From: a phage
Length of the DNA stretch: 64,000 bases
Sequence record: PZ171035.1
Reading direction: 5' to 3' (one strand)
Shown here: positions 243 through 64,000 of the stretch, piece by piece
Layout of the letters: the number at the start of each line of letters is the position of its first letter
How positions within the stretch are numbered: the first letter of the stretch is position 1
Program-made: the position numbers and the translations under genes
Notes under the pieces: model-generated
The model's database searches: none
Told to the model about the DNA's origin: nothing
Seen by the model: the letters and a program-made list of their open reading frames with translations, nothing else

Positions 243-257
243 TCTATCTCTATTGAT

Positions 258-845: not shown

Positions 846-895
846 GAGTATCCTTTGTTTGGGGTTATAAACCCCAATATGAAACTCCCAAGTTT

Positions 896-926
896 GACCT
901 CCCCATCGAAGGGAGGTCTTTTTTTG
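896..926 (+). terminator. rho-independent terminator
   Basis: GACCTCCC-N7-GGGAGGTC stem followed by a T7 run. Confidence 0.7.
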
Positions 927-950
927 GTTTAAACATCCTGGAGCCAGAAA

Positions 951-1857: not shown

Positions 1858-1891
1858 TCAGCAATCCCATTAGCTTTAGGAGAGTAAGTAA

Positions 1892-2205
1892 ATGGCAAGC
1901 ATCGACTCCTTGACTGTATGTAATTCACGTCAAGCTCGTAACTTTATTATCCGTGCCCTGAAAGCAGGTAACGTACCGTTCCTGACTTCATCACCTGGCA
2001 TGGGTAAATCTGCAATCATTCGTTCTATTGCAGAAGAATTTGGTATGAAGTTAATTGACCACCGTCTATCTACTTCTGCCCCGGAAGACCTGTCTGGCTT
2101 ACCTTTCCGTAATGGTGACCGTGCAGAGTTTATTCCATTCGCTGACTTATTCCCCATTGAGGGAGACGAAGTACCAGAAGGCTATAATGGCTGGCTCTTA
2201 TTCCT
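1892..2205 (+). CDS. AAA+ ATPase (MoxR/AAA_5-like), exon 1
   Basis: Walker A SPGMGKS; ORF ends in LLFL followed by stop; joining to 3088 restores Walker B LLFLDEFN. Confidence 0.6.
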
Positions 2206-16358: not shown

Positions 16359-18938
16359 ATGCGTTACATCACCTCTCAAAATACGGGTAAGTATCCTATT
16401 GCTATCCTCGGTCATCAAATCCGAAGGGAGGAGATGATTAAAACCTACCTGCTGCCTAATGACCTAAGCATGGAAGATTTTATCTTCATTGAACTTCATT
16501 CTGCCCCGGGCAAGAAGAAGACTCCTGCAAGGGAGATTAAAGAGTTCATACAGCAGGAACTGCAACAGGTACTGGATGATGCAGAGACTCAGTACATCAT
16601 TTGTACCGATTCTGACTACTTCAAGATACTGACTAAAGAAGCTAAAGCAGAGGCTAACCTCGGCTATGTTTGCGACTCAGTATGGGGTAAGCAGAAGGTT
16701 ATCTATGCACCTAGCTACAGACAGGTCTTTTATGACCCACCTGTAGTGAAATCCAAGATTGCTCAGGGTATGGATGCATTACTTAACCACATACGTGGGC
16801 AGTATGCTGAACCAGGTCATGGAATCATTGAGTTTGAAGCCTACCCAGATACTCCAGAAAAGATTAAAGCCTGGCTAGACCAGTTGCTTGAGATGAATAA
16901 GCCCCTGGCTATAGACATTGAAGCATTCGGTTTAAAGCACTATAACGCCGGTATAGGGACAATTACATTCTGTTGGAGTAAGACACAGGGCATAGCCTTT
17001 AATGTGGACTACGAGCCGATTCCTGGAGCTACTGAAGCACCTTACGGGCGTATCAACAGAAATGATATTGTTCGAAATCTTCTGCGTGAGTTCTTCATTA
17101 AGTACACTCAACGGCAGATGTATCACAACATTAGCTATGACGTGTATGTGCTTATCTATCAGTTATTCATGGATAACCTGATTGATACAAAAGGCTTACT
17201 GCACGGCATGGAAATCATGCTGCGTAATTGGGATTGCACTAAGTTAATCACCTACTTAGCTACTAACAGTTGTGCTGGCAATCACCTTAGTCTGAAAGAC
17301 CAGGCCCAGGAGTATGCTGGTAACTATGCCCAGGATGATATTAAAGACATTCGTCTTATTCCTAATGAGCAACTGTTACGCTACAACCTCATTGATGGTT
17401 TGTGTACGTGGTACACCTACGAGAAGCACTGGGATACTCTCATTGCTGACGACCAACTGGATGTTTACAACAATATCTTTAAACCAGCTTGTGAAGATAT
17501 TATCCAGATGCAGTTAACCGGTATGCCCATGAATATGGATACCGTTAACCAAGTAGCTAAGGAGATGGAAACTGACAGGAACCAGGCTCTGAAAACTATT
17601 CGTGAGTCTAAGCTCATGAAGAACTTCACCCTGATGCTTCGTCAGGAATGGGTAGATGATAAGAATGCTAAGCTCAAGAAGAAGCAAGTAACACTTGCTG
17701 ATTGTGACATAGAGTTTAATCCTAACTCTGGTCCACAACTACAGAAGCTGTTATTTGACTATATTGGCTTACCGGTTCTTGGTCTTACTAAGAGCAAGCA
17801 ACCTGCTACTGACGGTGACACTATTAAAGCACTGCGTACACATACGCAGAGTGAAGATGTTAAGGAACTGCTCAATGCACTTATCGACTATAAGCTCGTG
17901 GATAAGATTATCACTAGCTTTATACCAGCTTTCAGGAATGCCCAACCGGGACCGGATGGCTGGCACTACCTGTTCGGCAACCTCAATCTGGGAGGCACAG
18001 TCTCCGGTAGGCTATCGGCTTCAGAGCCAAATCTACAAACAATTCCATCCGGCTCTAAATATGCCAAGAAGATTAAGAAGTGCTTCGAAGCCCCTCCAGG
18101 CTGGGTATTTTGCGGCTTGGATTTCGCCTCGCTGGAAGACAGAATATCTGCACTGACTACTAAAGACCCTCAGAAGCTTAAGGTATATACCGATGGTTAT
18201 GATGGTCACAGTCTCCGTGCATATGCTTATTTTGGTGAGCAGATGCCAGACATAGAAGACACAGTAGAATCCATTAACTCCATTCAGCATAAGTACAAAT
18301 CATTGCGTAGTGACTCAAAGGCTCCAACCTTCTTGCTTACCTATGGTGGTACGTATATGGGCTTAATGAAAAACTGTGGCTTCTCTGAAGAGAAGGCTAA
18401 AACTACAGAGAAACGTTATCACGACCTCTACGTAGTTAGTGACAGATGGGTTCAGGCTAAGCTGGACGAAGCTGCCAAAACTGGCTATGTTACTGCCGCA
18501 TTCGGATTGAGAGTGCGTACTCCTTTACTGGCTCAGGTATTACGTGGGACATGTAAGACTCCGTATGAAGCAGAAGCAGAAGGCAGAACTGCTGGTAATG
18601 CTTTAGGGCAAAGCTGGTGTCTACTGAATAACCGTGCTGGTTCAGAGTTTATGCGTAAAGTCAGAGCCAGTGAGTTCAGGTTAGATATTCGTCCTAGTAT
18701 TCACATTCATGATGCTCAGTACTTCATGATTCGTGACAACATGGATACCTTACAGTTTACGAACAAGCACTTGGTTGAAGCCGTTAACTGGCAAGATCAT
18801 CCTGATATTGCCCATCCAGAAGTTGGTTTGGGTGGGGAACTATCCTTGTTCTACCCAACGTGGGCTAACGAGATTGAAATTCCAAATCACGCTACCCCAG
18901 AAGAAGTTCATCAAATAATTCAAAAGGCATTCGCATGA
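16359..18938 (+). CDS. family A DNA polymerase with 3'-5' exonuclease domain
   Basis: 859 aa; exo I DIEAFGL; motif B-like RSDSKAPTFLLTYGG; motif C-like IHIHDAQY. Confidence 0.8.
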   Translation: MRYITSQNTGKYPIAILGHQIRREEMIKTYLLPNDLSMEDFIFIELHSAPGKKKTPAREIKEFIQQELQQVLDDAETQYIICTDSDYFKILTKEAKAEANLGYVCDSVWGKQKVIYAPSYRQVFYDPPVVKSKIAQGMDALLNHIRGQYAEPGHGIIEFEAYPDTPEKIKAWLDQLLEMNKPLAIDIEAFGLKHYNAGIGTITFCWSKTQGIAFNVDYEPIPGATEAPYGRINRNDIVRNLLREFFIKYTQRQMYHNISYDVYVLIYQLFMDNLIDTKGLLHGMEIMLRNWDCTKLITYLATNSCAGNHLSLKDQAQEYAGNYAQDDIKDIRLIPNEQLLRYNLIDGLCTWYTYEKHWDTLIADDQLDVYNNIFKPACEDIIQMQLTGMPMNMDTVNQVAKEMETDRNQALKTIRESKLMKNFTLMLRQEWVDDKNAKLKKKQVTLADCDIEFNPNSGPQLQKLLFDYIGLPVLGLTKSKQPATDGDTIKALRTHTQSEDVKELLNALIDYKLVDKIITSFIPAFRNAQPGPDGWHYLFGNLNLGGTVSGRLSASEPNLQTIPSGSKYAKKIKKCFEAPPGWVFCGLDFASLEDRISALTTKDPQKLKVYTDGYDGHSLRAYAYFGEQMPDIEDTVESINSIQHKYKSLRSDSKAPTFLLTYGGTYMGLMKNCGFSEEKAKTTEKRYHDLYVVSDRWVQAKLDEAAKTGYVTAAFGLRVRTPLLAQVLRGTCKTPYEAEAEGRTAGNALGQSWCLLNNRAGSEFMRKVRASEFRLDIRPSIHIHDAQYFMIRDNMDTLQFTNKHLVEAVNWQDHPDIAHPEVGLGGELSLFYPTWANEIEIPNHATPEEVHQIIQKAFA

Positions 18939-27332: not shown

Positions 27333-27408
27333 TACCCGGTAGGCTTAGTGGTAAAGCCCCACTAGTAAACCAACTAGGACGCAGGTTCGAATCCTGTCCG
27401 GGTAGCCA
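27333..27408 (+). tRNA. tRNA (anticodon not resolved)
   Basis: Acceptor TACCCGG/CCGGGTA, D-arm GGCT-TAGTGGTAA-AGCC, T-arm GCAGG-TTCGAAT-CCTGT, discriminator G plus CCA; anticodon arm pairs only with a shifted, non-canonical register. Confidence 0.55.
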
Positions 27409-27413
27409 TTTAT

Positions 27414-27498
27414 GCCCACTTAGCTCAGTGGTAGAGCGCAGGAAAGCTTCGAGAGAACAAGGTGTCTGTGGTCACTGGTTCAAATCCAGTAGTGGGTA
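27414..27498 (+). tRNA. tRNA, 85 nt, probably long-variable-arm type (anticodon not resolved)
   Basis: Acceptor GCCCACT/AGTGGGT, D-arm GCTC-AGTGGTA-GAGC, T-arm ACTGG-TTCAAAT-CCAGT; no CCA encoded; no canonical anticodon stem found by eye. Confidence 0.5.
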
Positions 27499-29310: not shown

Positions 29311-29315
29311 AATAG

Positions 29316-29345
29316 AAGCCCCTCATTAGAGGGGCTTTTTCATTT
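29316..29345. terminator. bidirectional rho-independent terminator between convergent operons
   Basis: AAGCCCCTC-ATTA-GAGGGGCTT with T-rich tracts on both strands; sits between + strand stop (29310) and vRNAP stop (29344). Confidence 0.7.
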
Positions 29346-32300
29346 AGTTAGTAAGATTGAGCCACGGGTTCAGGGTATGAGCACGTAAGCCTTGACCGAA
29401 ACCGAAGGAGTAACCAAGATTGCCCTGTGCAGCAATACTAAAGATGTTGTCCTGAATAGGCAGGCCAACGTTACCAAACATGGTAGGGGTTGGGGCCAAC
29501 ATAGCCATAGCAGCATGAACTGGGTTATTACGAATCATGGACACTGCAACTTTTGCAGAACGAATCTTAAAGTTGTAGAACCACATCAGACCAACGCTTT
29601 CCATATACCCACGGAAACGACCAGGCAGACGGTCATAGTTAATGAACTCTTCCGTTACACGTCCCAGTGCTTCTTCGCGAGTCTTACCTTTACGCTGAGT
29701 TAGTTCATCATAGATGATTGCTTTAGCAATAAAGTCAGAGTACTCAACCGTCTTCTGGATACTCTGGAACAAAGCAGTATCCTTAGTGATAAGTGCATAA
29801 CGACCTGCGTTACGTACAGACTTAGGCAGCTTATCGGCTAGCTTATCCATATATTCGTGAAGTTTACCTTCAGTAATCAGAATGTCATCACGCCCAATAC
29901 CAGCATCTGCAATTGAAGAGAACTCACCAGCTTCCAATAGAGGCCAGATACTCAAACGCTTATGGCTATCCGTAATGGACTGAATCTCAGCCTTAAGTTT
30001 ACGAATCTGGTTCGGGTTAGTAGCTGCACGTAATTCTGCTTCTGCATCTACCTGACGCAGGCGAGATTTCAGGTACTGGTTAATCTCAGCAGTCTTCTGT
30101 GGAATGCTCTTAGCAATGTTCTTAACCGGTACACCACGAGCAACCATCTGGTAAAGGTTAGCCAGGAAGTTAACAGCAGGTACAACTACTGACTTAACCA
30201 CAATCAGAGTCTTAGCTTCTTTAACTAAGTTTTGAACCAGGTTCTCTCCACCCATTACATATTTATAAGCACGGTTACCGAAGACACCCAACATAGCTTT
30301 CTTGAAGGTATCCAGTGTTTCTGGGGACCAACGAGAATTACCAGACCAGGCATCACCAACGGAAGCTGCACGATAACCTAAGGCATCATTAAGCATGTCA
30401 CGACGTACCCACAACTCACCTGGACCAAACAGACTTTCTGCTTTCTGACGAGTTTCACTATTCATCAGCTTAAGTGCATCGGCAGTTACTGGGTCCAGTT
30501 TAGAACCAAGAAGGTTAACGTACTGGGACTTATTAGAAGCAGACATCTTAATGTCGTTCTCATACATGCTATGCAGGTTCTCAATTAGCATATCGTTGAA
30601 ACGCTGAGCCTTAGCCTCTTCTACCTGACGACCACGCCATACACCGATTGCACGAGCAAGATGGTTCTCACCTTCAATGTGCTTCAGCATGTTAGGGTCA
30701 ATAGATTGCTCGTAAGCAACTACATTACCATTAGCATCATATACAGGCAGCAGAGGTTCATTACCACGTTCACCACGAGCAAGTGCTTTAGTGATACGGT
30801 CTACAGAAGGCTTGTCAGTGATACGACCCGCTACCATGGTTCCCATCGTAAAGCCTGTACCAAGGTCTACACCACCAGCAGTATTTCGAACGTTCTGTAA
30901 GATACCCTGTGAGAATGGGGCCTGTGCCTGTACTGGTGCGAAGTAGTAGCTACGTGCTGGACCACGGTTAGCAGAGCTACCTTGATAAGTACCCAGACGT
31001 ACATAGGACTTCTCAATCAAATCACCAAACTGGCTATCTTCAGCAACAATCAGATTAACACCCTGTTTAGTCTCACTAGGGATATGCCCTTTGTACTGGT
31101 TCAGGGTTGCACGCATATCAGATTTGGCTTTAGCCATTTCATCTTTACGCTGACCAACCAGGTAAGAGGTGGCAAAGTCCATCCCATCAACTTCTGTCTG
31201 AGCCAGTGAAGATAACATCTCACGGTCGGACTTGTTCATTGCTTCCAGTGCATACAGGGTAATCAGTTTATCCAGTTGAGCTACATCTACAGTAGAGCGT
31301 GCAGCCTGACGTTCACCCAGCATACGGGAGATTGCAGTAGCATTACGCAGCAGGTTTTTACCGACAGTACCATTAATCATGTACTGAGCCAGTTGCTTAG
31401 ATTTACGGTTAATCAGAGGCCAGTTACGACCAGCTTGTTTCTGCAAATCTGCTTCCAGCTTATTCACTTCACGGTCAACAATCTTCTGGTCAGTCAGTAA
31501 GTCACGGATTTCAGCCAGTGACATAGTGTCACGCAGGACAGCTAAATCTGTTTTACCCATACCAGTATGCATTACTTTCCACTCATCATTAGTCAGCTTA
31601 CGGCTGAACTTAGATGCGATAGTAGTAGGCAGATGTTCACGGAACTGCTGACGGTCTGCCTGCACCTGTGCACGTACTGCTTTAATCAAATCGTATACAG
31701 AAGCATTGCTCTTAGTACGACCGGTTAAGTCATTAACCAGGTCATGGAAAGGTTGCCATACCTTACCCTGGTTCATTGCAGCCATAACACCTTCAGCTAC
31801 GATTGCACCATTCTTCTCTGTAGCAATAGCAGCTACCAGTTGTGCAGCATGAGCAGCACCTTTAACCAATGGATTATTGGTATTGGCTGCAACTTCACGA
31901 GCACCTTCCAAAGCACGGGTAGATAGTACATCAATAGAATCCACCAGATACTGGTTAGCACGGTCAATAGCATTACCAGTAGGAGTAGCAACGGAATCAT
32001 AGAAGGATTCTGCATTAAGACTGGTCTGCATAATCGTCTGAGCCAGTGCATCCATACCTTCCTGTACGTTAGTAGCTTTAGTATCACCTGCTACACGAGC
32101 ATTCAGACTAGCCATTGCAGCAGTACCAATGTTAGTCAGCATTGCATCAACGGTATTACCTGATTTCTTATCTGCTTTCATGACAGGAATGTCAGCCAGT
32201 ACTTTACGTACTTCTTCACTTACCATTGCCAGACCAACAAAGGTAGGCAGTAAAGAAGATCGACCTTGTGCATCAAACTCAATGTTGTTAGCACCCATGA

Positions 32301-35300
32301 TGGTATCGAACTTCTGCTGTGCATAATAACGATCAGCAGGGTTAGTACTATCTGGGTCAGCCATAAATGCTTCGACGGTCAGATTCTTAGTAACATGCGT
32401 GTAGTATTCCTGTGCACGAGCCATAGCAGCAGGGTTAACAGCAGCCTCGGTAGCCAGTGCAGCAACAATATTGGTAAAGAGACGCTGTTCCTGCATATTC
32501 ATGGTGAAGCCATGAGCCTGAACATCACGAGTTACTTTAGTTGCATTTACTACTGCATCAGAGAACTTACCTTTGCGAATTACTTGCTGTACTGGTTCTG
32601 AACCAATGTAGTTAGTAATTAGCTTATCAAAGGTTTTCCCTAGCTCTTCCAGACGAGTATTTTCACCATACGCTTTGTTATGGAACAGAGTAGTATCTTT
32701 GGCTACAGCAGCAGTAGGAGCTTGCCCACGCATTACTACAGCAGAGTTAAACAGTAAGCCAGAGAACATATCTTCTGCATTAGCAGGAGCTTTCTTACGT
32801 CCAAATACCAGACGTTTGATTGCTTCATATACAGCCTGAACCATAGTTTTAAGTGCAGTGGTTTTCTTCTGCTTACTAATCAGTTCTCGGTTGGTTAAAC
32901 CCCAAGCCATGTACTCGTTCAGTGCAGCAGCTTTAGCCATTGCTGGTTCAATAAAGCCATTGGATAGGTGACCATTAATGGTATTCAGTGCATCAGCATA
33001 TGCTTCTCGTACTGCCGGAGATTCATCCCTAACATCCAGAGCACGGAACTGATTCATCAGGTCTTCGATGTTCTGGACTGCTTCATTAGGAGTGCCTTCA
33101 TAGTGAGCCAGTACAGATTCAAAAGTAGAAGCATGTACCAATTCATGAACCAGAGTCTCTAAGGAAGGGGTAACTAAGTAGATGGTTTTATCTTCAAAGT
33201 TAGTCCAGCCGTATGCATTACCAGCTTCAGCAGCTTCAATATCTTCCGGTGCTGGGCGAGTAATGTTCTTCTCAATAGCATAGGCATCCAATTGAGCAGG
33301 TGTACCGTAAACAACTTTATAGTCTTTAGCAGCAAGGGATTTCTGTATTTCTTTCAATACTTCTTGCTGTTCAGGAGACATCTCTTTAGCCAGTTTAGTA
33401 ATGGCAGTGTTAGACAGCAGACGTACACCAGACTTCAGTACACGACCAACCTGTTCCATCGCCGGTACTTCTTCCACTGGTTCTGCTTTAGTAGCACGTA
33501 CTGCTTCACGACGCTTATTTAATTCAGCATCAAACAGTTCGTTCAGCTTAGCTACTTGCTGGTCTACAGTAAGACCTTCCAGAGAGATTTTACCGTTGTT
33601 CACATAAGGAGCACCTACGGCAGCCATCTGGTCAACAGTGACTTGTACCTGGTCCATTACCTTGTGACGAATATCTACACCCAGAGCAATGTTACGCAGG
33701 TTACGTTCAATCTGCTCAGCACCGACACGTAACAGGTCATCAGTAGCACCCTCACGTTGGTCATACTCCAGAGCAGACTTAGCGATAGCCTGTTTGGTTT
33801 CATCAGACAGTTTACTGAAGTCTACGTTCTTCATGAACTTAGCGTAGGAGTCATAAACATTCTTGATAGGGTTACCCTGCCAGGAAGTATATACAGCCTC
33901 ATTAGCTTTGCGACTTGCATCAGTGATGTCATTGATACCAATGTTCATACCATCAAAGATTTTCAGGGTATTCTTCGGAGCACCTTTCATAGTAGAAAGT
34001 GTCTGCATCATCATGCCATCACCAGTACCGATGGTCATAAATGGAATACCTGCAACACCTGCCTGTGAAGGAGCATAAATGCTCATTGGCACACGCATAC
34101 GGTCATCTAAGTTAGTAGCCAGTACTTGGTTAGCAACATCAGTATTCTCACTACCAGCAATGTAGAAAGTCTGTGAACCAGTCTCAATCATTGGAGCCAG
34201 TGAAGATAATGATTCCTGGATTTCATTCAGTTCTTTCTGCGTTAAGAAATCACCTTTCTTCCAGGTTGGGTCTTTTTCTTTTTCTGCCAGCTTAGCCTGT
34301 ACTGCTTGCTGGAACATATCCTGCAATACCAGAGATTGAATCTGGGTAGCCTTCTGCAAGTTCTCGGTAGAGTGCATCAGACCTTCACCAACAGTATTAC
34401 GGATACCAGTACGCATTGGTTCAACGAACAGGTGGAGCATGTTCTCTTGTAAGTTCTTCAGGGCATTACCGGATACGGTAAATTTCTGGGGGTCTAACTT
34501 ACCAGTCAGAGCACCATCTACTTGCTGAATAGACAACTCACCTTTACGCATAACTGGAACATTACCAGTCAGTGCTTCCATAGAAGTAAGGAAAGTATCC
34601 AACATAGCCTGAGCATCAGCTTCAGACGCAGCCTCCTTACCAAACATTGCCATAGCTGGGGAAATGCTAGGGTCAGCAGCTCGTGCTTGCAGAACGTCAC
34701 TGAAGCGTTCGTAGATGGTATCAGTAATTGCACTGACCATCTTGCCAGCAATACCACGAGCACCAGAACCATAGATGGTAATGGTCAGTGGGTTTTTAGC
34801 AATACCACGTTTCAGGTCCAGAGTACCGTCTTCATTCAGGTTAAAGTCTTTAATGAACAAGTCCATTAACTTCTGGAGATGATTCATCTGGCTCATAACT
34901 GGAACGTTGTTACGGTAAGTAGTACGTAACTCATTCAGTGCTTGTTGAAGACCATTGGTAGATGCTTCATACAAGTCAACATTATCGTCGATAGAACAAT
35001 GTTCGTTCATCGTTTTACCAGCACGACCAAAGAACAAACCACCTTTGGCAGTGTTCTTAATCCAGTCTGGAGTGAACTTACCACCAGTCATTAATACCAT
35101 TGCGTTGATTGGGCCGTTGGTTACACCATCAGCTTCAACGTACAGTGGAGTAGTAAAATTAGCACGGTCATCACTGTTCAGGTAACGGGCATATTCCATC
35201 AGAGCCATGAGAGCTACGAAGGATTTATCACTACCCAGAGAGGTCTTCAGGATGTCTACTGCATCTGTCGGTAAGTGACCAGACTTATCAAACTCAACCA

Positions 35301-38300
35301 TCATATCAACAGCAGGTTTCAGTTTACCTTCCAGAGCTTTAGTTAACTCTTCAGACATAACTTCACGGGACATTTTATGTACCTTGATGCCTAATGCCTG
35401 AGCCAGACCTAACTGGAAGTCAGAGAACGCTTGGCTGTTTTCATTACTCAAGTCGATAGTAGAGAAGGTTGGTAGGATTGCTTCACGAACCAGCTTACTG
35501 GATTGTGGGTTGTTCTTACCAAGCATCTGCATACGACCTACACGGGTCATGTTATAACCGTAGTGGATAGGTGTATCCAGACCATTCTCTTGTTCTCGTA
35601 TCTGATTAATTACACCGAACAGAGAATCATATGCCATAGACACGGACAGGTTTTTACCTTCCAAAGATTTAGCAGTGTTCGCGTTCAGTAATTCTGGATT
35701 AAGAGTACCAGCACCCATCAGTTCCAGAATGTTGTCACGCCCCAATGCTTCATAGAAGTTAACCATTGGCATATGTACACGGAACTCGGTAGCCTGTTCA
35801 GCTTTCAGTGCAGCTTTCTGTTCAGGGGTATTCTTAACAGCAGGGTTACGCAACTGAGTCTGAGCCACAGAAGGAATGTCATCACCAAAGTACATTTTCT
35901 CTTCTGGTTCTAAGAGGACAGCTTCCTCAATAGCAGTAGGGAATTTATTAATGGCATCATTGTCATCCAACTTCTCAATGGTATACAGACCAACAGTCTT
36001 ATTGGAGTCTGGGTCAATCTCAGACACATCCAACATAGACTCTTTAACTTCACCCATCTCAATGAGAGAAGACAGAATCTCTGTAGCCATTGCCATTGGG
36101 ATACCTTTGGTATAACCCAGCGGTGCATTAGGATTACGATTCAAACCCCAGTAGGATTCAATCTTCTGAGCCAGTGAGTTAGTAGCTTCAACCAGGGTCT
36201 GGGCATTCTCGAACTCAGCCAGAATACCTTCTGGTAACAGAGATGCTTCTACGCCTGTAATAGCAGCTACGTCTTTCATATCTTTAATGGCAGCATTCTG
36301 TGTAGTAGTCAGTCGCCATTGCAAACCAGCAAGCACAGCAGTCTCTAACAACTGGTCGTTGAACTTAAAGGTATCCCCATCTTGTTCAACTATATTCAGC
36401 AGTTTGCCACCTACCCAACGGTTAGCTTCAGTACCTTCTGCAAAACGTTTACCAACGTTCTTATTAGCAAGGAACTTAGCCAGACGTTCAGACAAAGTAG
36501 TCTTCAGAGTTTCACCAAAGTCCATTAAGTCCTGATAACGCTTAATCACATCACTAGTGAGAGCGTTATTTTCTTTTTGAGTGAATGCCTCAAAGCGAGC
36601 AGCAGAAGACAGTGCTTGCTTAATATCAGTCAAAGGAGATTCTGAACCAATGGTACGGGACTTAGGTTCTTCCGGTAAGGTAAATGCTTTCAGGAACTGG
36701 TTCGGTGTCTTTTCATTGTTATAGACAGGGAACACTGTTTCCATTTCTGTTTTGGTTTCAGCTACTTCCTGGATGGTATCCTCATTCTTGAGAATAGCAT
36801 CTACTGTTTCAGGCTTAGTAGTAGAGACTTCTTCTGTTTTTGGACTAGTCTCCTTAGTAGGAGCAGTCTTATTTTCTACCACAGGTTTAGCTTTAGGCTG
36901 TACAGTAGTAGTGTCCTCTTGCACTGGTGCAGGAGATTCATCAACCTGATTCACTGGTTCATTAGTCTGTTGAGACTGAGTGGCATCAAGACCACCTTGA
37001 CGGAACTCTTTAACTACCTGGGCAGCAGGCTTGTTCAGACGTGAATCCAACGAGGTAACTTTCACATGAGAAACATTAAGCTCCGGGTAAGCCGTAGCAA
37101 GTGCATTAGCAATATCAGCTACGGTTTTGGCTTCCAGTCCTACTTGCTGGGCAAACTTAACAGACTTGGTATCGTAAGGATTGACACCGAGGCCAGTACG
37201 ACTACGTACCCATTCACGGGAAGGCGAGAGAGCCTGATAATGAACAGACTTATTCTTATCCGCATTCCCCGAAATCAGATGCTCATTCAACGCTCCGACC
37301 TTATTCTGCATGTGCTGGGCGAACTTCATAAAGTCGCTCAGATAAGCGGAGGCCAAATCGAAGTTACCAGAGTTATACGCAGAACGAATGCGTTTCGCAT
37401 GTTGCAACGCAGAGTACTGTCCTTCATTAGAACGAGACTCGTCGGTTTTAATCTGTTTACTAACAATGTCTTGAGGACGTAAGCCTAGTTCTTCTGCTTT
37501 AGCGTCGAACTCACGTGCACCCTGTAACAAGGCAGCAGCAGATTGCAGGGCAGCACGTTGACGATTACCCAATGTAATCTTACCTTCACTTGCATGTTTC
37601 AGAACCATGTTCACTGAATCCGCATCCAGTACTTCTGGAGATACATCAGCAGCCATAGCAATATTGTTTGCTTGGGCTTGGTTAGCTTCTTCAGTAGCTT
37701 TCAGCTTACCTGCTTCAGCCTGTTCCTGAATCATGGAATGGATAGCACGGAATGCACGAAGTACTTTCGGGGTATTCTGTACGTTAGCCATCAGGCCGGA
37801 GAATTGGTCTACGATTGCAGCAGCAGGAGAACCCTGTTCAAGATTAGCCAGAGCACCTGGGTCACGGTTAATGAAGCTATCCATAGACATGATGTTGTCA
37901 TACATCTGGATTGCAGCTTCCATTTGAACGTTAGGGTCTTCGGCAGTATTAACCAGGTCAGCCATCTTCTGAATAGCTTCAACACGGTTAGTGGAACCAG
38001 AAACAGCTTCACGGATTGCCGGGTTAGCTTGTTCCAATTCTACCGGGTCAAACTTCATTGCCTGAGTTAAGTCAGCAGCATACTGGGTAGCAGCAGCTTT
38101 CTCTTCTGGAGTGATGTCCATTGCATCCACTGCTTCTTGTACAGTTGCCTGTGCTTGTTCTGCCTGAGCAGCAGCTTCCTGTGCAGCAGCATTAACCGTA
38201 GCATCAGCTACAGGGGATGCTTGTTCATTACGCTTAGCAACTTCTTCACCACGTTGAATCAGGATGTTAGTAAGAGGGGATGCAGCTTTTGCTAATGTTT

Positions 38301-39714
38301 TGCCAACCAGAGAAGCACCAGCCATGGTAGTACGAAGAGCAGGGCCAGCAGAAGCACCAACTGCTTTAACAGTTGTACCAGGAGCTTGAGCAACCCCAGC
38401 ACTACCGAATCCATAAAGTGCACCCAGACCTGCTTGCTCACCAACCCCTTTGAGGGTGTCACGGGATGCATCAACGTTTTCTTTGATTGCAGTATTCTGT
38501 GCGAACTGACCAAAGCCGGATTGAATACCTTCTTCGACTGTTTCACGTAGCATATTAGAACCAGCACCTGCCAGTGAACCTACCTTAAGTGGGTTAAGTT
38601 CAAAGCGAGATACCAGTGGACCGGTAGCAGCAGCAACTGGAGCAGTTAAGCCAGCAGCAATGATACCTGTTTCAGATGCAGTCTGACGACGTGCTTCATC
38701 AGGAGATAAACCATCAGCAATATGTTGTTGGTAAACAGGAGACTTACTTGCCAATTCTTGATGGGACATCTTCATGATTTCAGAAGCAGTCTGTTGGTAT
38801 GCACCACCAGCTTCCATACCACCGATTGCAATAGCAGGTGCAGCAACACGACCGGCAGACAATGCAACCTGTGCAGGACGTGAACCTAACCCAGCAGCTA
38901 AGGTAATACCCTTAACAGCTTTATCACCACCTACCATTACTTTACCAAGTGCAGATACACCACGAATAAGAGGACCACCAGTAAAGAGAGAACCAACACC
39001 TTCACTCAGTCCGTCAGAGGCAGCCATACCATTATCAAGTGTGTTAGCAACAGAATCGAAAGCGTCACGACCAATACGAGACAGGGAGGCAACCAAATCG
39101 CTGTCCCCATTTTTGATATCTTGTTCATAAAGTTTCTGGTTCTTTTGAGCAGAAATCTGGTTCTGATTCTGAACAACTTTACGGGTAGCATTCAGTGCAT
39201 CAGACTGTAGATTGTGTACACCTTCATTCAACCAATCCATCCCGGAAGCAATGGATGCCCCGGCATTATCATTGACCAGACCTGTGCCAAGAGCAGCAAT
39301 GCCCCCAAGGGTATTAGCAACACCAAGACCAACACCAGAAAGAGTATCGCCAAATGCTTCTGCGTTAGTACGCTGTTTAGATAAGTCCTGACGTACAACA
39401 TCAGCAGCATTAGCTCGGCTATTAATAATCTGTAGACCTTGTTCATTACCGTACTTATTAATGATTTCTAAAGGGGAGGCTTGAGTGAAATCTGCCTGAA
39501 GTGAACCTGGTTCGAATGCACCGATTCCAAGATTACCTACTCGTCCGGTCTGGAGATTGTAAGCATTCTCTGGGGTTAATTGGAAAGGGCTTTGCCCTTG
39601 TGCAGCTTGCTTCTGAGAGGTTGCAGTAGAGACATCGACTTGCTTAGCATTAGTGATGCTGTCTGCGAAACCTGCCAGACGGTCAAATGTTGACATAGCA
39701 TGTTTCCTGTTCAA
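29344..39714 (-). CDS. virion-encapsidated giant RNA polymerase (N4 vRNAP-like)
   Basis: Single 3456-aa ORF at the distal end of the late operon; size and position are the hallmark of N4-like phages (N4 vRNAP is ~3500 aa). Confidence 0.8.
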   Translation of the reverse strand: MNRKHAMSTFDRLAGFADSITNAKQVDVSTATSQKQAAQGQSPFQLTPENAYNLQTGRVGNLGIGAFEPGSLQADFTQASPLEIINKYGNEQGLQIINSRANAADVVRQDLSKQRTNAEAFGDTLSGVGLGVANTLGGIAALGTGLVNDNAGASIASGMDWLNEGVHNLQSDALNATRKVVQNQNQISAQKNQKLYEQDIKNGDSDLVASLSRIGRDAFDSVANTLDNGMAASDGLSEGVGSLFTGGPLIRGVSALGKVMVGGDKAVKGITLAAGLGSRPAQVALSAGRVAAPAIAIGGMEAGGAYQQTASEIMKMSHQELASKSPVYQQHIADGLSPDEARRQTASETGIIAAGLTAPVAAATGPLVSRFELNPLKVGSLAGAGSNMLRETVEEGIQSGFGQFAQNTAIKENVDASRDTLKGVGEQAGLGALYGFGSAGVAQAPGTTVKAVGASAGPALRTTMAGASLVGKTLAKAASPLTNILIQRGEEVAKRNEQASPVADATVNAAAQEAAAQAEQAQATVQEAVDAMDITPEEKAAATQYAADLTQAMKFDPVELEQANPAIREAVSGSTNRVEAIQKMADLVNTAEDPNVQMEAAIQMYDNIMSMDSFINRDPGALANLEQGSPAAAIVDQFSGLMANVQNTPKVLRAFRAIHSMIQEQAEAGKLKATEEANQAQANNIAMAADVSPEVLDADSVNMVLKHASEGKITLGNRQRAALQSAAALLQGAREFDAKAEELGLRPQDIVSKQIKTDESRSNEGQYSALQHAKRIRSAYNSGNFDLASAYLSDFMKFAQHMQNKVGALNEHLISGNADKNKSVHYQALSPSREWVRSRTGLGVNPYDTKSVKFAQQVGLEAKTVADIANALATAYPELNVSHVKVTSLDSRLNKPAAQVVKEFRQGGLDATQSQQTNEPVNQVDESPAPVQEDTTTVQPKAKPVVENKTAPTKETSPKTEEVSTTKPETVDAILKNEDTIQEVAETKTEMETVFPVYNNEKTPNQFLKAFTLPEEPKSRTIGSESPLTDIKQALSSAARFEAFTQKENNALTSDVIKRYQDLMDFGETLKTTLSERLAKFLANKNVGKRFAEGTEANRWVGGKLLNIVEQDGDTFKFNDQLLETAVLAGLQWRLTTTQNAAIKDMKDVAAITGVEASLLPEGILAEFENAQTLVEATNSLAQKIESYWGLNRNPNAPLGYTKGIPMAMATEILSSLIEMGEVKESMLDVSEIDPDSNKTVGLYTIEKLDDNDAINKFPTAIEEAVLLEPEEKMYFGDDIPSVAQTQLRNPAVKNTPEQKAALKAEQATEFRVHMPMVNFYEALGRDNILELMGAGTLNPELLNANTAKSLEGKNLSVSMAYDSLFGVINQIREQENGLDTPIHYGYNMTRVGRMQMLGKNNPQSSKLVREAILPTFSTIDLSNENSQAFSDFQLGLAQALGIKVHKMSREVMSEELTKALEGKLKPAVDMMVEFDKSGHLPTDAVDILKTSLGSDKSFVALMALMEYARYLNSDDRANFTTPLYVEADGVTNGPINAMVLMTGGKFTPDWIKNTAKGGLFFGRAGKTMNEHCSIDDNVDLYEASTNGLQQALNELRTTYRNNVPVMSQMNHLQKLMDLFIKDFNLNEDGTLDLKRGIAKNPLTITIYGSGARGIAGKMVSAITDTIYERFSDVLQARAADPSISPAMAMFGKEAASEADAQAMLDTFLTSMEALTGNVPVMRKGELSIQQVDGALTGKLDPQKFTVSGNALKNLQENMLHLFVEPMRTGIRNTVGEGLMHSTENLQKATQIQSLVLQDMFQQAVQAKLAEKEKDPTWKKGDFLTQKELNEIQESLSSLAPMIETGSQTFYIAGSENTDVANQVLATNLDDRMRVPMSIYAPSQAGVAGIPFMTIGTGDGMMMQTLSTMKGAPKNTLKIFDGMNIGINDITDASRKANEAVYTSWQGNPIKNVYDSYAKFMKNVDFSKLSDETKQAIAKSALEYDQREGATDDLLRVGAEQIERNLRNIALGVDIRHKVMDQVQVTVDQMAAVGAPYVNNGKISLEGLTVDQQVAKLNELFDAELNKRREAVRATKAEPVEEVPAMEQVGRVLKSGVRLLSNTAITKLAKEMSPEQQEVLKEIQKSLAAKDYKVVYGTPAQLDAYAIEKNITRPAPEDIEAAEAGNAYGWTNFEDKTIYLVTPSLETLVHELVHASTFESVLAHYEGTPNEAVQNIEDLMNQFRALDVRDESPAVREAYADALNTINGHLSNGFIEPAMAKAAALNEYMAWGLTNRELISKQKKTTALKTMVQAVYEAIKRLVFGRKKAPANAEDMFSGLLFNSAVVMRGQAPTAAVAKDTTLFHNKAYGENTRLEELGKTFDKLITNYIGSEPVQQVIRKGKFSDAVVNATKVTRDVQAHGFTMNMQEQRLFTNIVAALATEAAVNPAAMARAQEYYTHVTKNLTVEAFMADPDSTNPADRYYAQQKFDTIMGANNIEFDAQGRSSLLPTFVGLAMVSEEVRKVLADIPVMKADKKSGNTVDAMLTNIGTAAMASLNARVAGDTKATNVQEGMDALAQTIMQTSLNAESFYDSVATPTGNAIDRANQYLVDSIDVLSTRALEGAREVAANTNNPLVKGAAHAAQLVAAIATEKNGAIVAEGVMAAMNQGKVWQPFHDLVNDLTGRTKSNASVYDLIKAVRAQVQADRQQFREHLPTTIASKFSRKLTNDEWKVMHTGMGKTDLAVLRDTMSLAEIRDLLTDQKIVDREVNKLEADLQKQAGRNWPLINRKSKQLAQYMINGTVGKNLLRNATAISRMLGERQAARSTVDVAQLDKLITLYALEAMNKSDREMLSSLAQTEVDGMDFATSYLVGQRKDEMAKAKSDMRATLNQYKGHIPSETKQGVNLIVAEDSQFGDLIEKSYVRLGTYQGSSANRGPARSYYFAPVQAQAPFSQGILQNVRNTAGGVDLGTGFTMGTMVAGRITDKPSVDRITKALARGERGNEPLLPVYDANGNVVAYEQSIDPNMLKHIEGENHLARAIGVWRGRQVEEAKAQRFNDMLIENLHSMYENDIKMSASNKSQYVNLLGSKLDPVTADALKLMNSETRQKAESLFGPGELWVRRDMLNDALGYRAASVGDAWSGNSRWSPETLDTFKKAMLGVFGNRAYKYVMGGENLVQNLVKEAKTLIVVKSVVVPAVNFLANLYQMVARGVPVKNIAKSIPQKTAEINQYLKSRLRQVDAEAELRAATNPNQIRKLKAEIQSITDSHKRLSIWPLLEAGEFSSIADAGIGRDDILITEGKLHEYMDKLADKLPKSVRNAGRYALITKDTALFQSIQKTVEYSDFIAKAIIYDELTQRKGKTREEALGRVTEEFINYDRLPGRFRGYMESVGLMWFYNFKIRSAKVAVSMIRNNPVHAAMAMLAPTPTMFGNVGLPIQDNIFSIAAQGNLGYSFGFGQGLRAHTLNPWLNLTN

Positions 39715-39790
39715 ACTTATATCGTATATAGGTAACTTACTCTACAGTAAGCCAGTTAAAGAAAAAAGCCCCGTAGGGCTTTTATTAGTA

Positions 39791-41755
39791 TTACCGATTT
39801 TGTCTTGGTTGCATATACTCAGGCAGTCCTTGTGCCTGACGTAAGTACCGTGCAGCACGTTCTTCATCTTCCTTGGCTCGTGCCCTGTCCACACTAGCCT
39901 GTGACTGAAAACCTCTTGGAGCCAGGTTAGCTGGGTCAGCTTGTACTTGTGCCTGTGCAGCTTGGAGCATTGCAGCAGCTTTAGTAACAGCCTCCTGTCG
40001 TGCAGGTAACAGTGCAGTAAGACCACTTTGTCCGGTGTTAATCTTATTCTGGGTATTTGCCAGTGCAGCTACAGCAGCATCATATGCAGTCTGTGCTGCC
40101 TGAATGTTCTGCATAGCCTGAGCACGACCTAGGTTACGAACACTACCTTCTAATGGTTCACCTCGTTTTACACCCTCAATTAACTGTTCTACCTGACGGT
40201 CATTAAGACGCATACCATTACCGGCTTCATTGGTAATGAATGGGTTAACTGCATCAATAGCACGACTAATATAACCTTCCGGTACACCAGTCTGTGCACG
40301 TTGCATAACAGCAGCAGCCATAGCTGGTGACATATTCCCACGTTGGGAAATATCATTCAGTCGGTTCAGTACCCAGTTACGGTCAGCACCTTTAAAGTCA
40401 CCCTCCAACAGACGGTTAGCAATCTCACCTACTGGGGTATTATCGGTGACAGTACCAAGGAAGTCAGTGTTAAGACTACCGGTGTTATCCTGCATAGAGC
40501 GAGTACCAATCATACCTTGAGCCAGAGTAGATACTGCCTGATTGCCCTGATTATTCTGAACCATAGCGAGAGGGTCAGCCCCCACTTCTGCTTGAGCAAT
40601 AACAGGTTTAATCTGTTCCCAAGTCATATCCTTATAAGCACCTGGAGCAGAGTTAGGGAGTGCAGCCCAAGTATCTTTAAGGTTACCGTTCTTACGGGCC
40701 TCGAAGATAGCCTTACCAATCTTATCCTGGTTCTCAGGAGAAAGAGGCTGGCTTTGCCAATCTGAACCAAGAACTTTAGGAGCGAAGTCTTTCAGAGTAG
40801 CTTGGTTAATCTGGAATGCACCAACAGGTGAAGCACCTTGGTTCTTCTTCATACCATCCTGGTGTTTAATTACATCACCAATACTCATTTGAGTAATAGG
40901 AGTAGATGTACTGGCAAACTGGTAAGTAACATCATAAGGAGAACCCTGACGAGTACCAGCAGTACCTGGAGCAGATGTAGCACCAACATTATTACCGTAA
41001 ACACCCGGGTATGCTCGTGCAAGCATTTCCTGCAAACGTGCCTGTGCAACCGGGGACAGGTTCTTACTATATGCTTCTGCCAACAGACGGGCATCATTAG
41101 GGTTCTCAGCACCACGAGTAATCTGTGACATTACACCCATAGCTGCCTGACTATCAGCATCATTACGTTGGGCAACACCTAAATCAAAACGGTTCTGTGC
41201 CTGATTAATAGCCTGACCACCCTGACCTTGAAGACGACCCAACATGTCCAATTGTTGGTCAGCAGGGAGTGCAGACAGTGCATCACGGGTCTGACTTAAT
41301 GCAGCATTAATACGGTTCTGGTCGCCGGACTGATAAGCCTCAGACAGCAAACGAATAGCTGGGGAAGCATTATCTAATGCAGTGTTAGTATCCTGTAAAC
41401 GACCAAAGCGATATGCATTGTAGTCATTGGTTCCCTGCTGACCTTGTTGGGTCAGTAATGTACCTGCTCGCTCATCCAGATTCTGGAGAGTACGTTGGTT
41501 TACCAATGAGGGGTCAACCCCCTGAAACAGTGCACCGGATGCTAAAGCATTACGGTACTCATTCGGGTCTTGATACTGCATAGCATTCATCATGACGGCA
41601 TTGCCAGCCTCCTGCTTGGCAGCGTTCTGGAAATTACCCAGTGCATCACTTAAGCCGGAGGTGGCGTTACCAATCATGCTGCCAAATGTGCGAATGCTGT
41701 CACCAACTCCAGAGAAGTTAGGTGCATCAACATTTCTCCACGTTATCTGAGCCAT
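39791..41755 (-). CDS. virion structural / internal protein
   Basis: 654-aa ORF adjacent to vRNAP in the late operon. Confidence 0.45.
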   Translation of the reverse strand: MAQITWRNVDAPNFSGVGDSIRTFGSMIGNATSGLSDALGNFQNAAKQEAGNAVMMNAMQYQDPNEYRNALASGALFQGVDPSLVNQRTLQNLDERAGTLLTQQGQQGTNDYNAYRFGRLQDTNTALDNASPAIRLLSEAYQSGDQNRINAALSQTRDALSALPADQQLDMLGRLQGQGGQAINQAQNRFDLGVAQRNDADSQAAMGVMSQITRGAENPNDARLLAEAYSKNLSPVAQARLQEMLARAYPGVYGNNVGATSAPGTAGTRQGSPYDVTYQFASTSTPITQMSIGDVIKHQDGMKKNQGASPVGAFQINQATLKDFAPKVLGSDWQSQPLSPENQDKIGKAIFEARKNGNLKDTWAALPNSAPGAYKDMTWEQIKPVIAQAEVGADPLAMVQNNQGNQAVSTLAQGMIGTRSMQDNTGSLNTDFLGTVTDNTPVGEIANRLLEGDFKGADRNWVLNRLNDISQRGNMSPAMAAAVMQRAQTGVPEGYISRAIDAVNPFITNEAGNGMRLNDRQVEQLIEGVKRGEPLEGSVRNLGRAQAMQNIQAAQTAYDAAVAALANTQNKINTGQSGLTALLPARQEAVTKAAAMLQAAQAQVQADPANLAPRGFQSQASVDRARAKEDEERAARYLRQAQGLPEYMQPRQNR

Positions 41756-41767: not shown

Positions 41768-42232
41768 TTAACGAGTTAGTTTATTAGCAGCAATGTAAGC
41801 ATCAGCCGAAGACTGGTCACGGTTCTCTGCTGTAGCACGGCTACGAGCACGGTCTTCCAGTGCAGTGTTATAAGACTTAATCTGGTTATTCAGGTTAGTG
41901 TTAGTAACACTCTTAGTAAAGTTCAACTGGTCTTTGGCTAACTTGTTAGCCTGGAAACCACTATAGATACCAGCTAAGGAACCAAGTGCACCAAGTCCTA
42001 GTTGAAAGGTGGGTACGTTCATACCCAACTGATTAGCTGAACCAGATAAGAAGGAAGTTGGGGAAGCCACTCCTGTACCTGCATTCATACCAATAGCTGC
42101 ACCAGGGGTATAGTTCATAGCTGGGGTATTAAAGTTCTGATTGTTATTAGACATCCAAGACATAGCAGCTGGCTGTGGGGTTTGGTTGCCTGTTAAGAAT
42201 GACAAATCCATGAGGATTCTCCTGTTAAACAA
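41768..42232 (-). CDS. virion structural protein
   Basis: 154-aa ORF in the late operon. Confidence 0.4.
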   Translation of the reverse strand: MFNRRILMDLSFLTGNQTPQPAAMSWMSNNNQNFNTPAMNYTPGAAIGMNAGTGVASPTSFLSGSANQLGMNVPTFQLGLGALGSLAGIYSGFQANKLAKDQLNFTKSVTNTNLNNQIKSYNTALEDRARSRATAENRDQSSADAYIAANKLTR

Positions 42233-58400: not shown

Positions 58401-58607
58401 CTCAGACTGTACACCAATAACCATTCCATACTGATTCAGAAGATCATACAGAAGTTTAAGGTTACCCAAGTTACAGTAAACAGTACGAACCACATGGTAA
58501 GCATTACCAAGCAGTGCATCTACCATTGGATCATTAGAACTGTTCTGACAGTAAGGATTGGACCAATCCTGACTTGCATCAAAGGGGGTATGTGCGTTCA
58601 TCGCCAT
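55467..58607 (-). CDS. tailspike / receptor-binding protein 2 (virion-anchored, beta-helix)
   Basis: 1046 aa; internal KIIYDVAAQKAYGLPPLP motif shared with tailspike 1; repeated Asn/Gly-rich beta-strand pattern. Confidence 0.55.
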   Translation of the reverse strand: MAMNAHTPFDASQDWSNPYCQNSSNDPMVDALLGNAYHVVRTVYCNLGNLKLLYDLLNQYGMVIGVQSETELKALTTNAKYARIYGFSRASDRQVTDYLYVEDDRTGIIPNDTTATGSWITVATSGSNSGDTSSGGGAYIPWVYANGSATGGETSINVPDGTVGVPFIVINGNMQYVGRGFEFNVDSLSVTLAQPLEEGDEVIILLTGTPAVPDNPNVNDWVQINWLYNGGYASGGEQVIQIPYTFQSIPAIYKNGARYYAGLSENSYTVDADNQRIMLTEPLATNDRLIITIGGESETLIMSDRTIQEVARSSNVKDTDVILSTNTTQYLNDKKIIYDVAAQKAYGLPPLPTNIYIGSVSNGKLTYNPGSITVDLVPLPGSVDELLNNKGVILTPEMFSNGTETNHTAVFKAMLAEAKAKGLSVSASGTYVLDAHPTDPIDIEVPADFSAATIICTTNDGNSENWNNTSILFRIPQESRDVTAQFASETFSRGKKSIDVTGLSGWLSFESTDVWLQRKANASAAGSPQYKIEVNETDQKGALSYNHYHSFTSAPTVSYKPFVKELTFKAPNIILDGAGIGWVIFCERNNVNILGNNVASKNNGFAMSFIEFNRCARSYITDYSLDANFPETYGGGYTVMLTQASSVTAERINSLSGWSGIDGNYYRGLTVRDSKLRSVGGHCGVSDVFIQGCTITNHCNGMGWGTWTALDCHHNLSLDKASEDFWSTKYDYNNSWDGKVIVKNLKVTLHSGCTGHSVVTAMEPKADHAMLGYCPDIFINNVEYDIANTNPNMDIRTINLGVSGGSNFEQYQVLPQFHTVDGVTFGGGSNRYLGNTNYRVVYNERNYTSITSAQMNAINRSGSRYIVKVSNIELERLGRINQDSLNAARVDGFKFTSYGTKQEIHIERSAHVIPCTSAWTDMTIAVSNQRMNKGFFDNAVTRTGNTSYNKITFTSCELFGVGGSGATYRSGLFDFVGCVFRWDSHSDKPIASPDTTMGTDFGSGVQVVGRIQSCVLGTTPASSTVDTTFKTRVLSGYTNAGVYIAS

Positions 58608-63940: not shown

Positions 63941-63960
63941 GGTGTGGCTGGGGCTACACC
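63941..63960 (+). promoter_or_regulatory. 8-bp stem hairpin near window end
   Basis: GGTGTGGC-TGGG-GCTACACC (one G-U pair). Confidence 0.3.
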
Positions 63961-64000
63961 CTTACACTCAACCATCCCCCCCGGTATGTTGACGGTGTAG

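Follow-up and report, generated by a model that had tools for sequence, protein, structure and literature searches.

A giant minus-strand reading frame in a Gamaleyavirus-like coliphage encodes an ortholog of the N4 virion RNA polymerase

The window analysed here, a stretch of 64,000 nucleotides of phage DNA (sequence record PZ171035.1), carries one uninterrupted open reading frame (ORF) of 3,456 codons on the minus strand (positions 29344-39714). It almost certainly encodes the virion RNA polymerase (vRNAP) of a coliphage in the genus Gamaleyavirus (G7C-like; family Schitoviridae), a DNA-dependent, single-subunit enzyme of the virion-encapsidated type that is orthologous to gp50 of phage N4. 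The first-pass annotation had placed a single 10.4-kb ORF at this location, naming no strand, and had read it as an N4-like giant virion RNA polymerase; the ORF is there, and phmmer, Pfam, PHROG and the catalytic residues agree on a full-length ortholog of N4 gp50. An intact frame, homology from end to end, a domain order of N-terminal domain (NTD), linker, polymerase domain (Pol), linker and C-terminal domain (CTD), conserved catalytic and promoter-reading residues, and synteny are all observed, and the gene is an ordinary intact copy of a well-known one whose close relatives are already in the databases.

The length of 3,456 residues given previously is right for the maximal ORF, which opens with the earliest start codon available (a TTG), and less apt for the protein: its translation most likely begins at the ATG at 39696. 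This yields 3,450 residues, with the coding sequence at 29344-39696 (minus strand) and the stop codon at 29344-29346. An AGGA at 39708-39705 precedes the ATG with an 8-nt spacer, and in all nine Gamaleyavirus relatives examined the equivalent ATG is either annotated as the start or opens a frame of the same length. By our own estimate, a frame this long would stay open by chance with a probability of about 1e-72, that is, (61/64)^3456. The gene matches the DNA of 86 phage records, 61 of which cover at least 80% of it (best identity 94.3%), and ten other translated vRNAPs are collinear with it at 3,443-3,500 residues. These matches, together with the purification and solved structure of the full-length N4 protein, already refute the idea of a chance open frame or of several genes joined by an assembly artefact, for which nothing speaks beyond the unusual length and whose probability we consider vanishingly small.

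In phmmer searches, the alignment with the solved N4 vRNAP pairs our residues 1-3449 with its residues 1-3499 (5040 bits), and identity to the 3,500-residue N4 gp50 is 67.3% overall. The Pfam families N4_RNAP_helical, vRNAP_dom_2, vRNAP_dom and vRNAP_plug match with E-values from 1e-25, the value for vRNAP_plug, to 7e-101, and PHROG 2206, 'virion RNA polymerase', matches end to end (4136 bits, profile positions 5-3405 of 3406). Among the matches listed, the phages are Gamaleyavirus or closely similar coliphages, many of them with the gene annotated as virion RNA polymerase. The closest vRNAPs, from KKP 3715, PhAPEC7, ST4, IME11, phi G17, SP5M and other Gamaleyavirus members, are 95.9-97.1% identical to ours at the protein level and 92-94% at the DNA level; of the nine compared, eight have exactly 3,450 residues, and start codon and flanking terminators are as here. 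Our sequence departs from nine unanimous Gamaleyavirus relatives at 24 positions, none of them catalytic, and the exact protein was not found in a collection of 15 billion protein sequences.

Several public records mislabel the ortholog as DNA polymerase, IF2 or hypothetical protein. Taken at face value, the label 'DNA polymerase' in ST4, PBM-2, PBM-3 and UE-M6 and 'translation initiation factor 2' in phi G17 would make the product some other large protein, such as a DNA polymerase or a protein resembling a translation initiation factor; these labels, however, are the output of automated pipelines. Pfam searches at E-values up to 0.1 bring up neither a DNA polymerase nor an IF2 family, and the real family-A DNA polymerase is encoded by a separate gene at 16359-18938. 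Such an identity, already refuted by these results and by the end-to-end alignment with an experimentally solved virion RNA polymerase, is extremely improbable.

The vRNAP has the same three domains and two flexible linkers as N4 gp50, for which structures of the mini-vRNAP (PDB 2po4, 3c2p and 3q0a) and of the full-length protein (9pnr, 9pnq and 11gp) are available. All parts are given here in minus-strand coordinates. The NTD (residues 1-914, N4 1-919; 36955-39696) is 59% identical to N4 over N4 residues 1-997 and includes two Gly/Ala-rich hydrophobic segments (residues 119-140 and 344-362), with hydrophobic peaks at the matching N4 positions. Linker 1 (residues 915-983; 36748-36954) is of low complexity and rich in P, T, E, K and V, as is consistent with the description of N4 linker 907-1006 as low-complexity (PMC13434306); with 47-56% identity it is the least conserved part of the protein. 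The Pol domain, equivalent to the mini-vRNAP (residues 984-2071; 33484-36747), is 72% identical to N4 998-2103, scores about 1710 bits against the crystal structures 2po4, 3c2p and 3q0a, and contains the four Pfam vRNAP domains at residues 1292-2025. The CTD (residues 2082-3450, N4 2123-3500; 29347-33453) is 69% identical and is covered by structures 9pnr and 11gp. Insertions and deletions relative to N4 are concentrated in the two linkers: our protein is 50 residues shorter, and most of this difference falls in linker 1 (deletions of 17 and 6 residues and a few single residues), with 8 residues in linker 2.

Whether the central domain carries the motifs of single-subunit RNA polymerases was named in the first-pass annotation as the check that could refute the assignment, and all five catalytic residues, known in mini-vRNAP numbering as R424, D559, K670, Y678 and D951 (PMC2784036), are present. 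They correspond to R1388 in motif T/DxxGR (codon 35533-35535, context NMTRVGRMQMLGK, as in N4), the catalytic aspartate D1523 in motif A (codon 35128-35130, context PLYVEADGVTNGP, as in N4), K1634 and Y1642 bounding motif B (34771-34797, context LKRGIAKNPLTITIYGSGARG, as in N4), and the catalytic aspartate D1915 in motif C (codon 33952-33954, conserved context NTLKIFDGMNIG), all on the minus strand; the 13-residue contexts equal those of N4 for the first four, and around D951 a single flanking position differs. R119 and W129, which read the -11G of the hairpin promoter in N4 (PMC13492108), are found as R1084 and W1094 (36415-36447, minus strand), and all seven residues are invariant across the 11 vRNAPs compared. 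N4 gp50 and the protein described here thus have in common the four motifs (T/DxxGR, A, B and C), the plug domain and the residues that recognise -11G. The palm aspartates of motifs A and C and the Lys and Tyr of motif B are in place, and a right-hand fold is what we would expect from 72% identity to the crystallised mini-vRNAP.

With the catalytic and promoter-contact residues all invariant, and neither frameshift nor stop across 10.35 kb, there is little room for a polymerase-dead or decaying copy kept only as a structural or ejection protein, even if two thirds of the vRNAP (NTD and CTD) play no part in catalysis and the N4 enzyme doubles as a third ejection protein. Pol is moreover the best conserved part of the protein, reaching 95% identity in the bin of N4 residues 1901-2000 that contains motif C, and the one otherwise invariant arginine that is now a cysteine has the same replacement in phage KKP 3715, which was isolated independently and is viable. 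We therefore regard a dead copy as very improbable and continue to treat the protein as a polymerase.

Similarity to T7 RNA polymerase is undetectable by sequence: PF00940 does not match in Pfam searches at E-values up to 0.1, and no T7 or mitochondrial RNA polymerase appears among the PDB sequence matches at E-values up to 10. Nor would N4 gp50 itself be expected to show it, having been placed in the T7-like superfamily through motifs and fold only (PMC13492108). The catalytic motifs are nonetheless common to T7-like polymerases (T7 and mitochondrial, PF00940), as is, through the N4 crystal structures, the right-hand fold. Compared with T7 RNA polymerase, the enzyme is about four times larger and, if it behaves as N4-type enzymes do, would be packaged in the virion and use single-stranded hairpin promoters instead of duplex ones. 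Pseudomonas N4-like polymerases are only 21-28% identical to our Pol domain, most of those listed over only about half of it.

The genomic setting is likewise that of N4, whose gene order is reproduced from gp17 to gp70. As in N4, the gene lies beside gp51 and gp52 and is convergent with gp49; it is the last of the leftward late block, with gp51, gp52 and gp53 directly upstream. A gp51-like ejection protein of 654 residues (39791-41755, minus strand; PHROG 6126) is 50% identical to N4 gp51, and a gp52-like one of 147 residues (41768-42211, minus strand; PHROG 2646) is 56% identical to N4 gp52; tblastn with the N4 proteins places gp51 at 41755-39986, gp52 at 42211-41771 and gp53 at 44879-42231. 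In N4, gp51 builds a complex in the outer membrane, and gp52 makes a periplasmic tunnel (PMC13434306). A comparable arrangement is found in Pseudomonas phage DEV, which also has a giant vRNAP, beside two small alpha-helical ejection proteins in the gp72/gp73 operon (PMC11445570); the DEV polymerase is far more divergent from ours than that of N4.

At the 3' side of the vRNAP gene, where it converges with the rightward gp49-like gene, lies a bidirectional terminator-like hairpin (29314-29339) with an 11-bp stem, T-runs on both strands and a fold energy of -20 kcal/mol; terminators are annotated at the equivalent place in PhAPEC7 and SP5M. At the 5' side of the gene, the intergenic region towards gp51 (39697-39790, minus strand) comprises two hairpins, a terminator-like one at 39783-39764 and another at 39754-39733, then an invariant GATATAAGTTTG at 39723-39712 that resembles a -10 element, and the ribosome-binding site AGGA (39708-39705). 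This layout is kept in nine Gamaleyavirus relatives and in N4, and in the second hairpin the stem differs in sequence between N4 and Gamaleyavirus while its pairing is preserved. The earlier placement of the gene at the end of the late operon accordingly stands in so far as no gene of the leftward late block comes after it, and needs qualifying in that a terminator-like hairpin, itself conserved, stands between it and gp51.

The vRNAP has a single cysteine, C1567 (TGT, 34996-34998, minus strand), where PhAPEC7 has arginine (CGT) and N4 also has arginine; phage KKP 3715 shares the cysteine. About 30 would be expected in 3,450 residues from the average of 0.87% in the other proteins of the window (P about 2.5e-12), and the gp51-like and gp52-like proteins have none. 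A cysteine-free composition has been noted as a vRNAP trait (PMC2784036), and the protein described here and N4 gp50 are both cysteine-free or nearly so. The arginine-to-cysteine change at 1567 is a departure from the strictly cysteine-free pattern. A sequencing error was considered and ruled out, since KKP 3715 carries this residue too, with the local context unchanged. A cysteine-tolerant sublineage made up of KKP 3715 and the present phage would have a bearing on the proposal that translocation requires the absence of cysteine. Tentatively, and with the odds rather against it, one may propose that the vRNAP gene forms a regulated unit of its own, beyond read-through from gp53-gp51, that the intergenic cassette sets the very low output that about 4 copies per virion would call for, and that cysteine is tolerated within this sublineage.

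The N4 enzyme is packaged in the virion, ejected into the host and responsible for rifampicin-resistant early transcription (PMC13492108, PMC11445570), and its CTD acts as an autoinhibitor of the polymerase and is required for encapsidation (PMC13434306, PMC13492108); in phage Moo19, of the same subfamily, the orthologous polymerase was detected in virions by mass spectrometry. By analogy with N4, we infer encapsidation, ejection, promoter use and autoinhibition for the phage studied here as well. The vRNAP would be made late in infection and a few copies packed into the capsid, a step that in N4 needs the CTD; upon infection it would be ejected through the tail together with gp51, as the outer-membrane pore, and gp52, as the periplasmic tunnel. 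The central T7-like domain would then transcribe the early genes from hairpin promoters that extrude on the template strand, with stems of 5-7 bp and a 3-nt loop, and the CTD may keep the active site closed until a promoter is engaged.

Such promoters are not visible in the window because the early region lies outside it. Our scan for N4-type hairpin promoters returned none in the window (shuffle expectation 0.16). In N4 it picked out exactly three sites, and in PhAPEC7 three at syntenic positions, CATGC-GGA-GCATG, AGACGC-GGA-GCGTCT and AGCTGC-GGA-GCAGCT, which the left-end hairpins of the phage studied here are predicted to resemble; P1 would be expected about 30 nt beyond the edge of the window. 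The genes for the RNAPII subunits, which the first-pass annotation had not found in the window and supposed to lie upstream of position 1, behave in the same way: tblastn with the N4 and PhAPEC7 subunits gives no match in the window, and relatives carry these genes just left of the point where it starts. Position 12 of the window is the start of a gp17-like gene, which in PhAPEC7 begins 318 nt past the RNAP2 stop. The ORFs at 3152-5009, considered as candidate RNAPII subunits, turned out to be the second exon of a gp24-like ATPase and a gp25-like VWA/DUF2201 protein.

Compared with G7C-like phages, the window is syntenic and 92-94% identical over 82-96% of three window segments, and in the left and right segments no record listed reaches 95% for the product of identity and coverage. 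With the ICTV species threshold at 95%, the phage probably represents a new species of Gamaleyavirus (Schitoviridae, Enquatrovirinae), as judged from these genome comparisons. The vRNAP gene itself adds no new biology and serves mainly as an annotation anchor, by which the window is recognised as an almost complete Gamaleyavirus genome and its early, middle and late regions are oriented; the missing part, of about 7.5 kb, should contain the hairpin promoters together with gp1, gp2 and the RNAPII genes. The sequence could also be added to the material from which conserved and variable surfaces are mapped onto the full-length N4 vRNAP structures of 2026.

Two further observations concern other genes of the window. 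The gp24-like ATPase gene is interrupted between positions 2205 and 3088 by an insertion of 882 bp, a multiple of three, which is likely a group I intron; an intein was rejected on account of in-frame stops and a free-standing HNH ORF inside the insertion. The gene for the decoration protein contains an amber codon.

Between positions 39714 and 29344, the minus strand carries a single uninterrupted frame, 3456 codons long if read from the earliest potential start (TTG). No overlapping rival ORF of similar size exists in the window, and the chance of a frame staying open for so long is about 1e-72, estimated by (61/64)^3456. The first-pass annotation had read this 10.4-kb ORF as the 3456-residue giant virion RNA polymerase (vRNAP) of an N4-like phage; the uninterrupted frame stands, but the length does not. 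The TTG is merely the mechanical start of the ORF, and an ATG at 39696, six codons past it, has AGGA (39708-39705) ahead of it across an 8-nt spacer and is the start common to all nine Gamaleyavirus relatives examined, whether as annotated or from an equally long reading frame. The vRNAP is therefore 3450 residues long, not 3456. With this small correction, and a second one that qualifies the place of the gene in its operon, the observation is confirmed and the vRNAP interpretation supported.

Among PDB sequences, residues 1-3449 align to residues 1-3499 of the 3500-residue N4 "Virion DNA-directed RNA polymerase" (gp50) with 5040 bits, and the central part aligns to the crystal structures of mini-vRNAP, the central polymerase domain of the N4 enzyme, with about 1710 bits. 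Four vRNAP-specific Pfam domains are recognised, N4_RNAP_helical (7e-101), vRNAP_dom_2 (3e-58), vRNAP_dom (3e-56) and vRNAP_plug (1e-25), and the match to PHROG 2206, "virion RNA polymerase", covers positions 5-3405 of its 3406-position profile. In a MAFFT alignment, identity to N4 gp50 is 67.3% overall; by domain, it is 59% for the N-terminal (NTD), 72% for the polymerase and 69% for the C-terminal domain (CTD). Nearly the whole difference in length from gp50 sits in two inter-domain linkers, the first, of low complexity, with deletions of 17 and 6 residues and the second with a deletion of 8. The domain limits agree with the boundaries in the full-length N4 vRNAP, for which cryo-EM was described in two 2026 papers (PMC13434306, PMC13492108). 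Residues 2652-3397 (29506-31743, minus strand) also match positions 4035-4801 of PHROG 19273 (E 1.6e-23), a 4846-position profile of a family of unknown function, which suggests that the CTD fold is common to another family of still larger phage proteins.

By mini-vRNAP numbering, the catalytic residues of the four T7-like motifs of N4 are R424, D559, K670, Y678 and D951 (PMC2784036, citing Kazmierczak et al. 2002), and their counterparts here are R1388, D1523, K1634, Y1642 and D1915. Around each of the first four, the 13-residue context is the same as in N4, one flanking position is changed around D951, and all five residues are invariant in the 11 vRNAPs aligned. The central domain therefore carries every catalytic motif of a single-subunit RNA polymerase, so that the reading as vRNAP survives the refutation test proposed for it, in which a central domain devoid of such motifs would have counted against it. 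R119 and W129, by which the N4 enzyme recognises the -11G in its hairpin promoter (PMC13492108), are likewise kept, as R1084 and W1094. No similarity to T7 or mitochondrial RNA polymerases is detectable at the sequence level, by PF00940 in Pfam or among PDB sequences at E values up to 10; the link between N4 gp50 and T7 RNA polymerase is itself described as one of motifs and fold, the sequences being otherwise little alike (PMC13492108).

The vRNAP contains a single cysteine, and the window counterparts of N4 gp51 and gp52 contain none; at the average of 0.87% in the window's remaining proteins, about 30 would be expected in vRNAP against the one observed (P about 2.5e-12). This sole cysteine, C1567 (TGT, 34996-34998, minus strand), arose through an Arg-to-Cys transition: the residue is Arg in N4 and in PhAPEC7 (CGT), and the nine further vRNAPs in the comparison are cysteine-free. 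We considered it as an error and rejected this, since phage KKP 3715 has the same cysteine, which makes it a polymorphism of the lineage. In the NTD, Gly/Ala-rich hydrophobic segments lie at the same positions as in N4, and together with the near absence of cysteine they fit a passage through the envelope.

The steps of the infection mechanism have been shown for N4, and for the present phage we infer them by homology. The vRNAP would be packed in the capsid, where N4 has 4 ± 1 copies, and would be ejected ahead of the DNA via a channel about 30-35 Å wide, a passage made possible by the beads-on-a-string layout of its domains. In N4, gp51 makes up a complex in the outer membrane and gp52 a periplasmic tunnel, both co-ejected with vRNAP (PMC13434306). 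The NTD, by its proposed role, would take part in association with the membrane and in injection, and encapsidation would require the CTD. Hairpin promoters would then be extruded by gyrase-driven supercoiling and host SSB, after which vRNAP would transcribe the genes for gp1, gp2 and RNAPII, the second phage RNA polymerase.

Synteny with N4 is complete, as judged by tblastn with N4 proteins, with the counterparts of gp17 to gp49 running rightward (12-29008) and those of vRNAP, gp51 (39791-41755), gp52 (41768-42211) and gp53 on to gp69 running leftward; the GC skew flips sign near 30 kb, where the two sets converge. The vRNAP gene had been placed at the end of the late operon, and it is indeed the last gene of the leftward block, followed by a bidirectional terminator-like hairpin (29314-29339) where terminators are annotated in PhAPEC7 and SP5M, but a structured 94-nt spacer separates it from gp51. 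This spacer (39697-39790, minus strand), whose layout is kept in N4 and in nine of nine Gamaleyavirus relatives, holds on the minus strand a terminator-like hairpin, AAAAGCCC-NNNN-GGGCTTTTTT (39783-39764), a second hairpin (39754-39733) with a stem that still pairs although N4 and Gamaleyavirus have different sequences there, an invariant GATATAAGTTTG (39723-39712) that resembles a -10 element, and the ribosome-binding site to which the AGGA belongs. The gene may be expressed via read-through or from a promoter of its own, and the spacer may act as an attenuator together with a late promoter.

By megablast, the vRNAP gene matches 86 phage records, 61 of which cover at least 80% of it, the best being Escherichia phage KKP 3715 with 94.3% identity. 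The gene is of a kind known before, with close database relatives; the closest records belong to Gamaleyavirus (Schitoviridae, Enquatrovirinae), and many annotate it as virion RNA polymerase. Several GenBank records of orthologs (ST4, phi G17, KKP 3715 and IME11) carry the wrong product name, "DNA polymerase", "translation initiation factor 2" or "hypothetical protein", and such errors could spread to other annotations. An exact copy of the protein does not occur in a collection of 15 billion sequences; the nearest relative is the KKP 3715 vRNAP (97.1% identical). As segments 1-25000 and 39715-64000 are likewise similar to Gamaleyavirus, with 92-94% identity over 82-96% of each, the window represents most of a Gamaleyavirus genome and, given the ICTV species threshold of 95%, probably a new species of this genus. 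Among the N4 receptor-binding genes, the window lacks any match to gp64 and gp65, and that to gp66 is limited to its first 72 residues. Their position is occupied by minus-strand ORFs of 636 (53503-55413) and 1046 residues (55467-58607), the former with a weak pectate-lyase-like match (E 0.0015), which we take to be the tailspike swap typical of G7C-like phages.

The RNAPII genes had been supposed to lie outside the window, probably upstream of position 1, and this is supported: neither N4 gp15 and gp16 nor PhAPEC7 RNAP1 and RNAP2 give a tblastn hit in the window, and the gp17-like gene starts at position 12, its PhAPEC7 counterpart beginning 318 nt past the RNAP2 stop codon. At the other end, the last 56 nt (63945-64000, plus strand) match PhAPEC7 positions 1-55, and the window therefore ends in a terminal repeat or at a permuted left end; the P1 hairpin promoter would be expected about 30 nt further on. 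A scan for perfect stems of at least 5 bp around GC-GNA-GC, a class derived from the N4 P1 sequence (PMC13434306), finds exactly three sites in N4 (90-102, 557-573 and 4546-4562) and three syntenic sites in PhAPEC7 (86-98, 909-923 and 4990-5004); the window has none (0.16 in shuffles). The entire early region would thus fall outside the window, and the comparison supports about 7.5 kb there that would hold the three promoters, gp1, gp2 and RNAPII.

The gp24-like AAA ATPase gene (1892-3826) is split by an 882-nt insertion (2206-3087, plus strand) within its LLFLDEF motif, presumably the Walker B motif. Its removal restores a 350-residue ORF 95% identical to PhAPEC7 gp24. The insertion encodes a NUMOD4-HNH_3-AP2 homing-endonuclease ORF (2323-2892), the last base of the 5' exon is T and that of the insertion G, and the Rfam Intron_gpI match at 2838-3025 scores 22 bits (E 0.005), below the gathering score of 50. 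Only three records of the collection, from two phages (U1G, twice, and Gamaleyavirus NAN33P5), contain it in full, and its 3' part is 72-78% identical to DNA that flanks homing endonucleases of unrelated Dickeya, Pseudomonas, Proteus and Vibrio phages. The most likely identity of the insertion is a mobile group I intron; a group I intron was described earlier in another gene of an N4-like Vibrio phage.

The gp17-like Hoc-like head-decoration gene (12-845), elsewhere 86% identical to its PhAPEC7 ortholog, has an in-frame amber codon at 240-242 (plus strand), where codon 77 is TAG against CAG in PhAPEC7 and the residue is Gln in both PhAPEC7 and N4. The result would be a shortened decoration protein or one that restarts from the ATG at 258. 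In an ORF-poor stretch between the gp46-like and gp48-like genes lie tandem tRNA genes (27333-27405 and 27414-27498, plus strand) with Rfam scores of 39 and 54 bits, of which ARAGORN calls the first only, with its anticodon undetermined; PhAPEC7 annotates a "tRNA-Xle" in the corresponding region.
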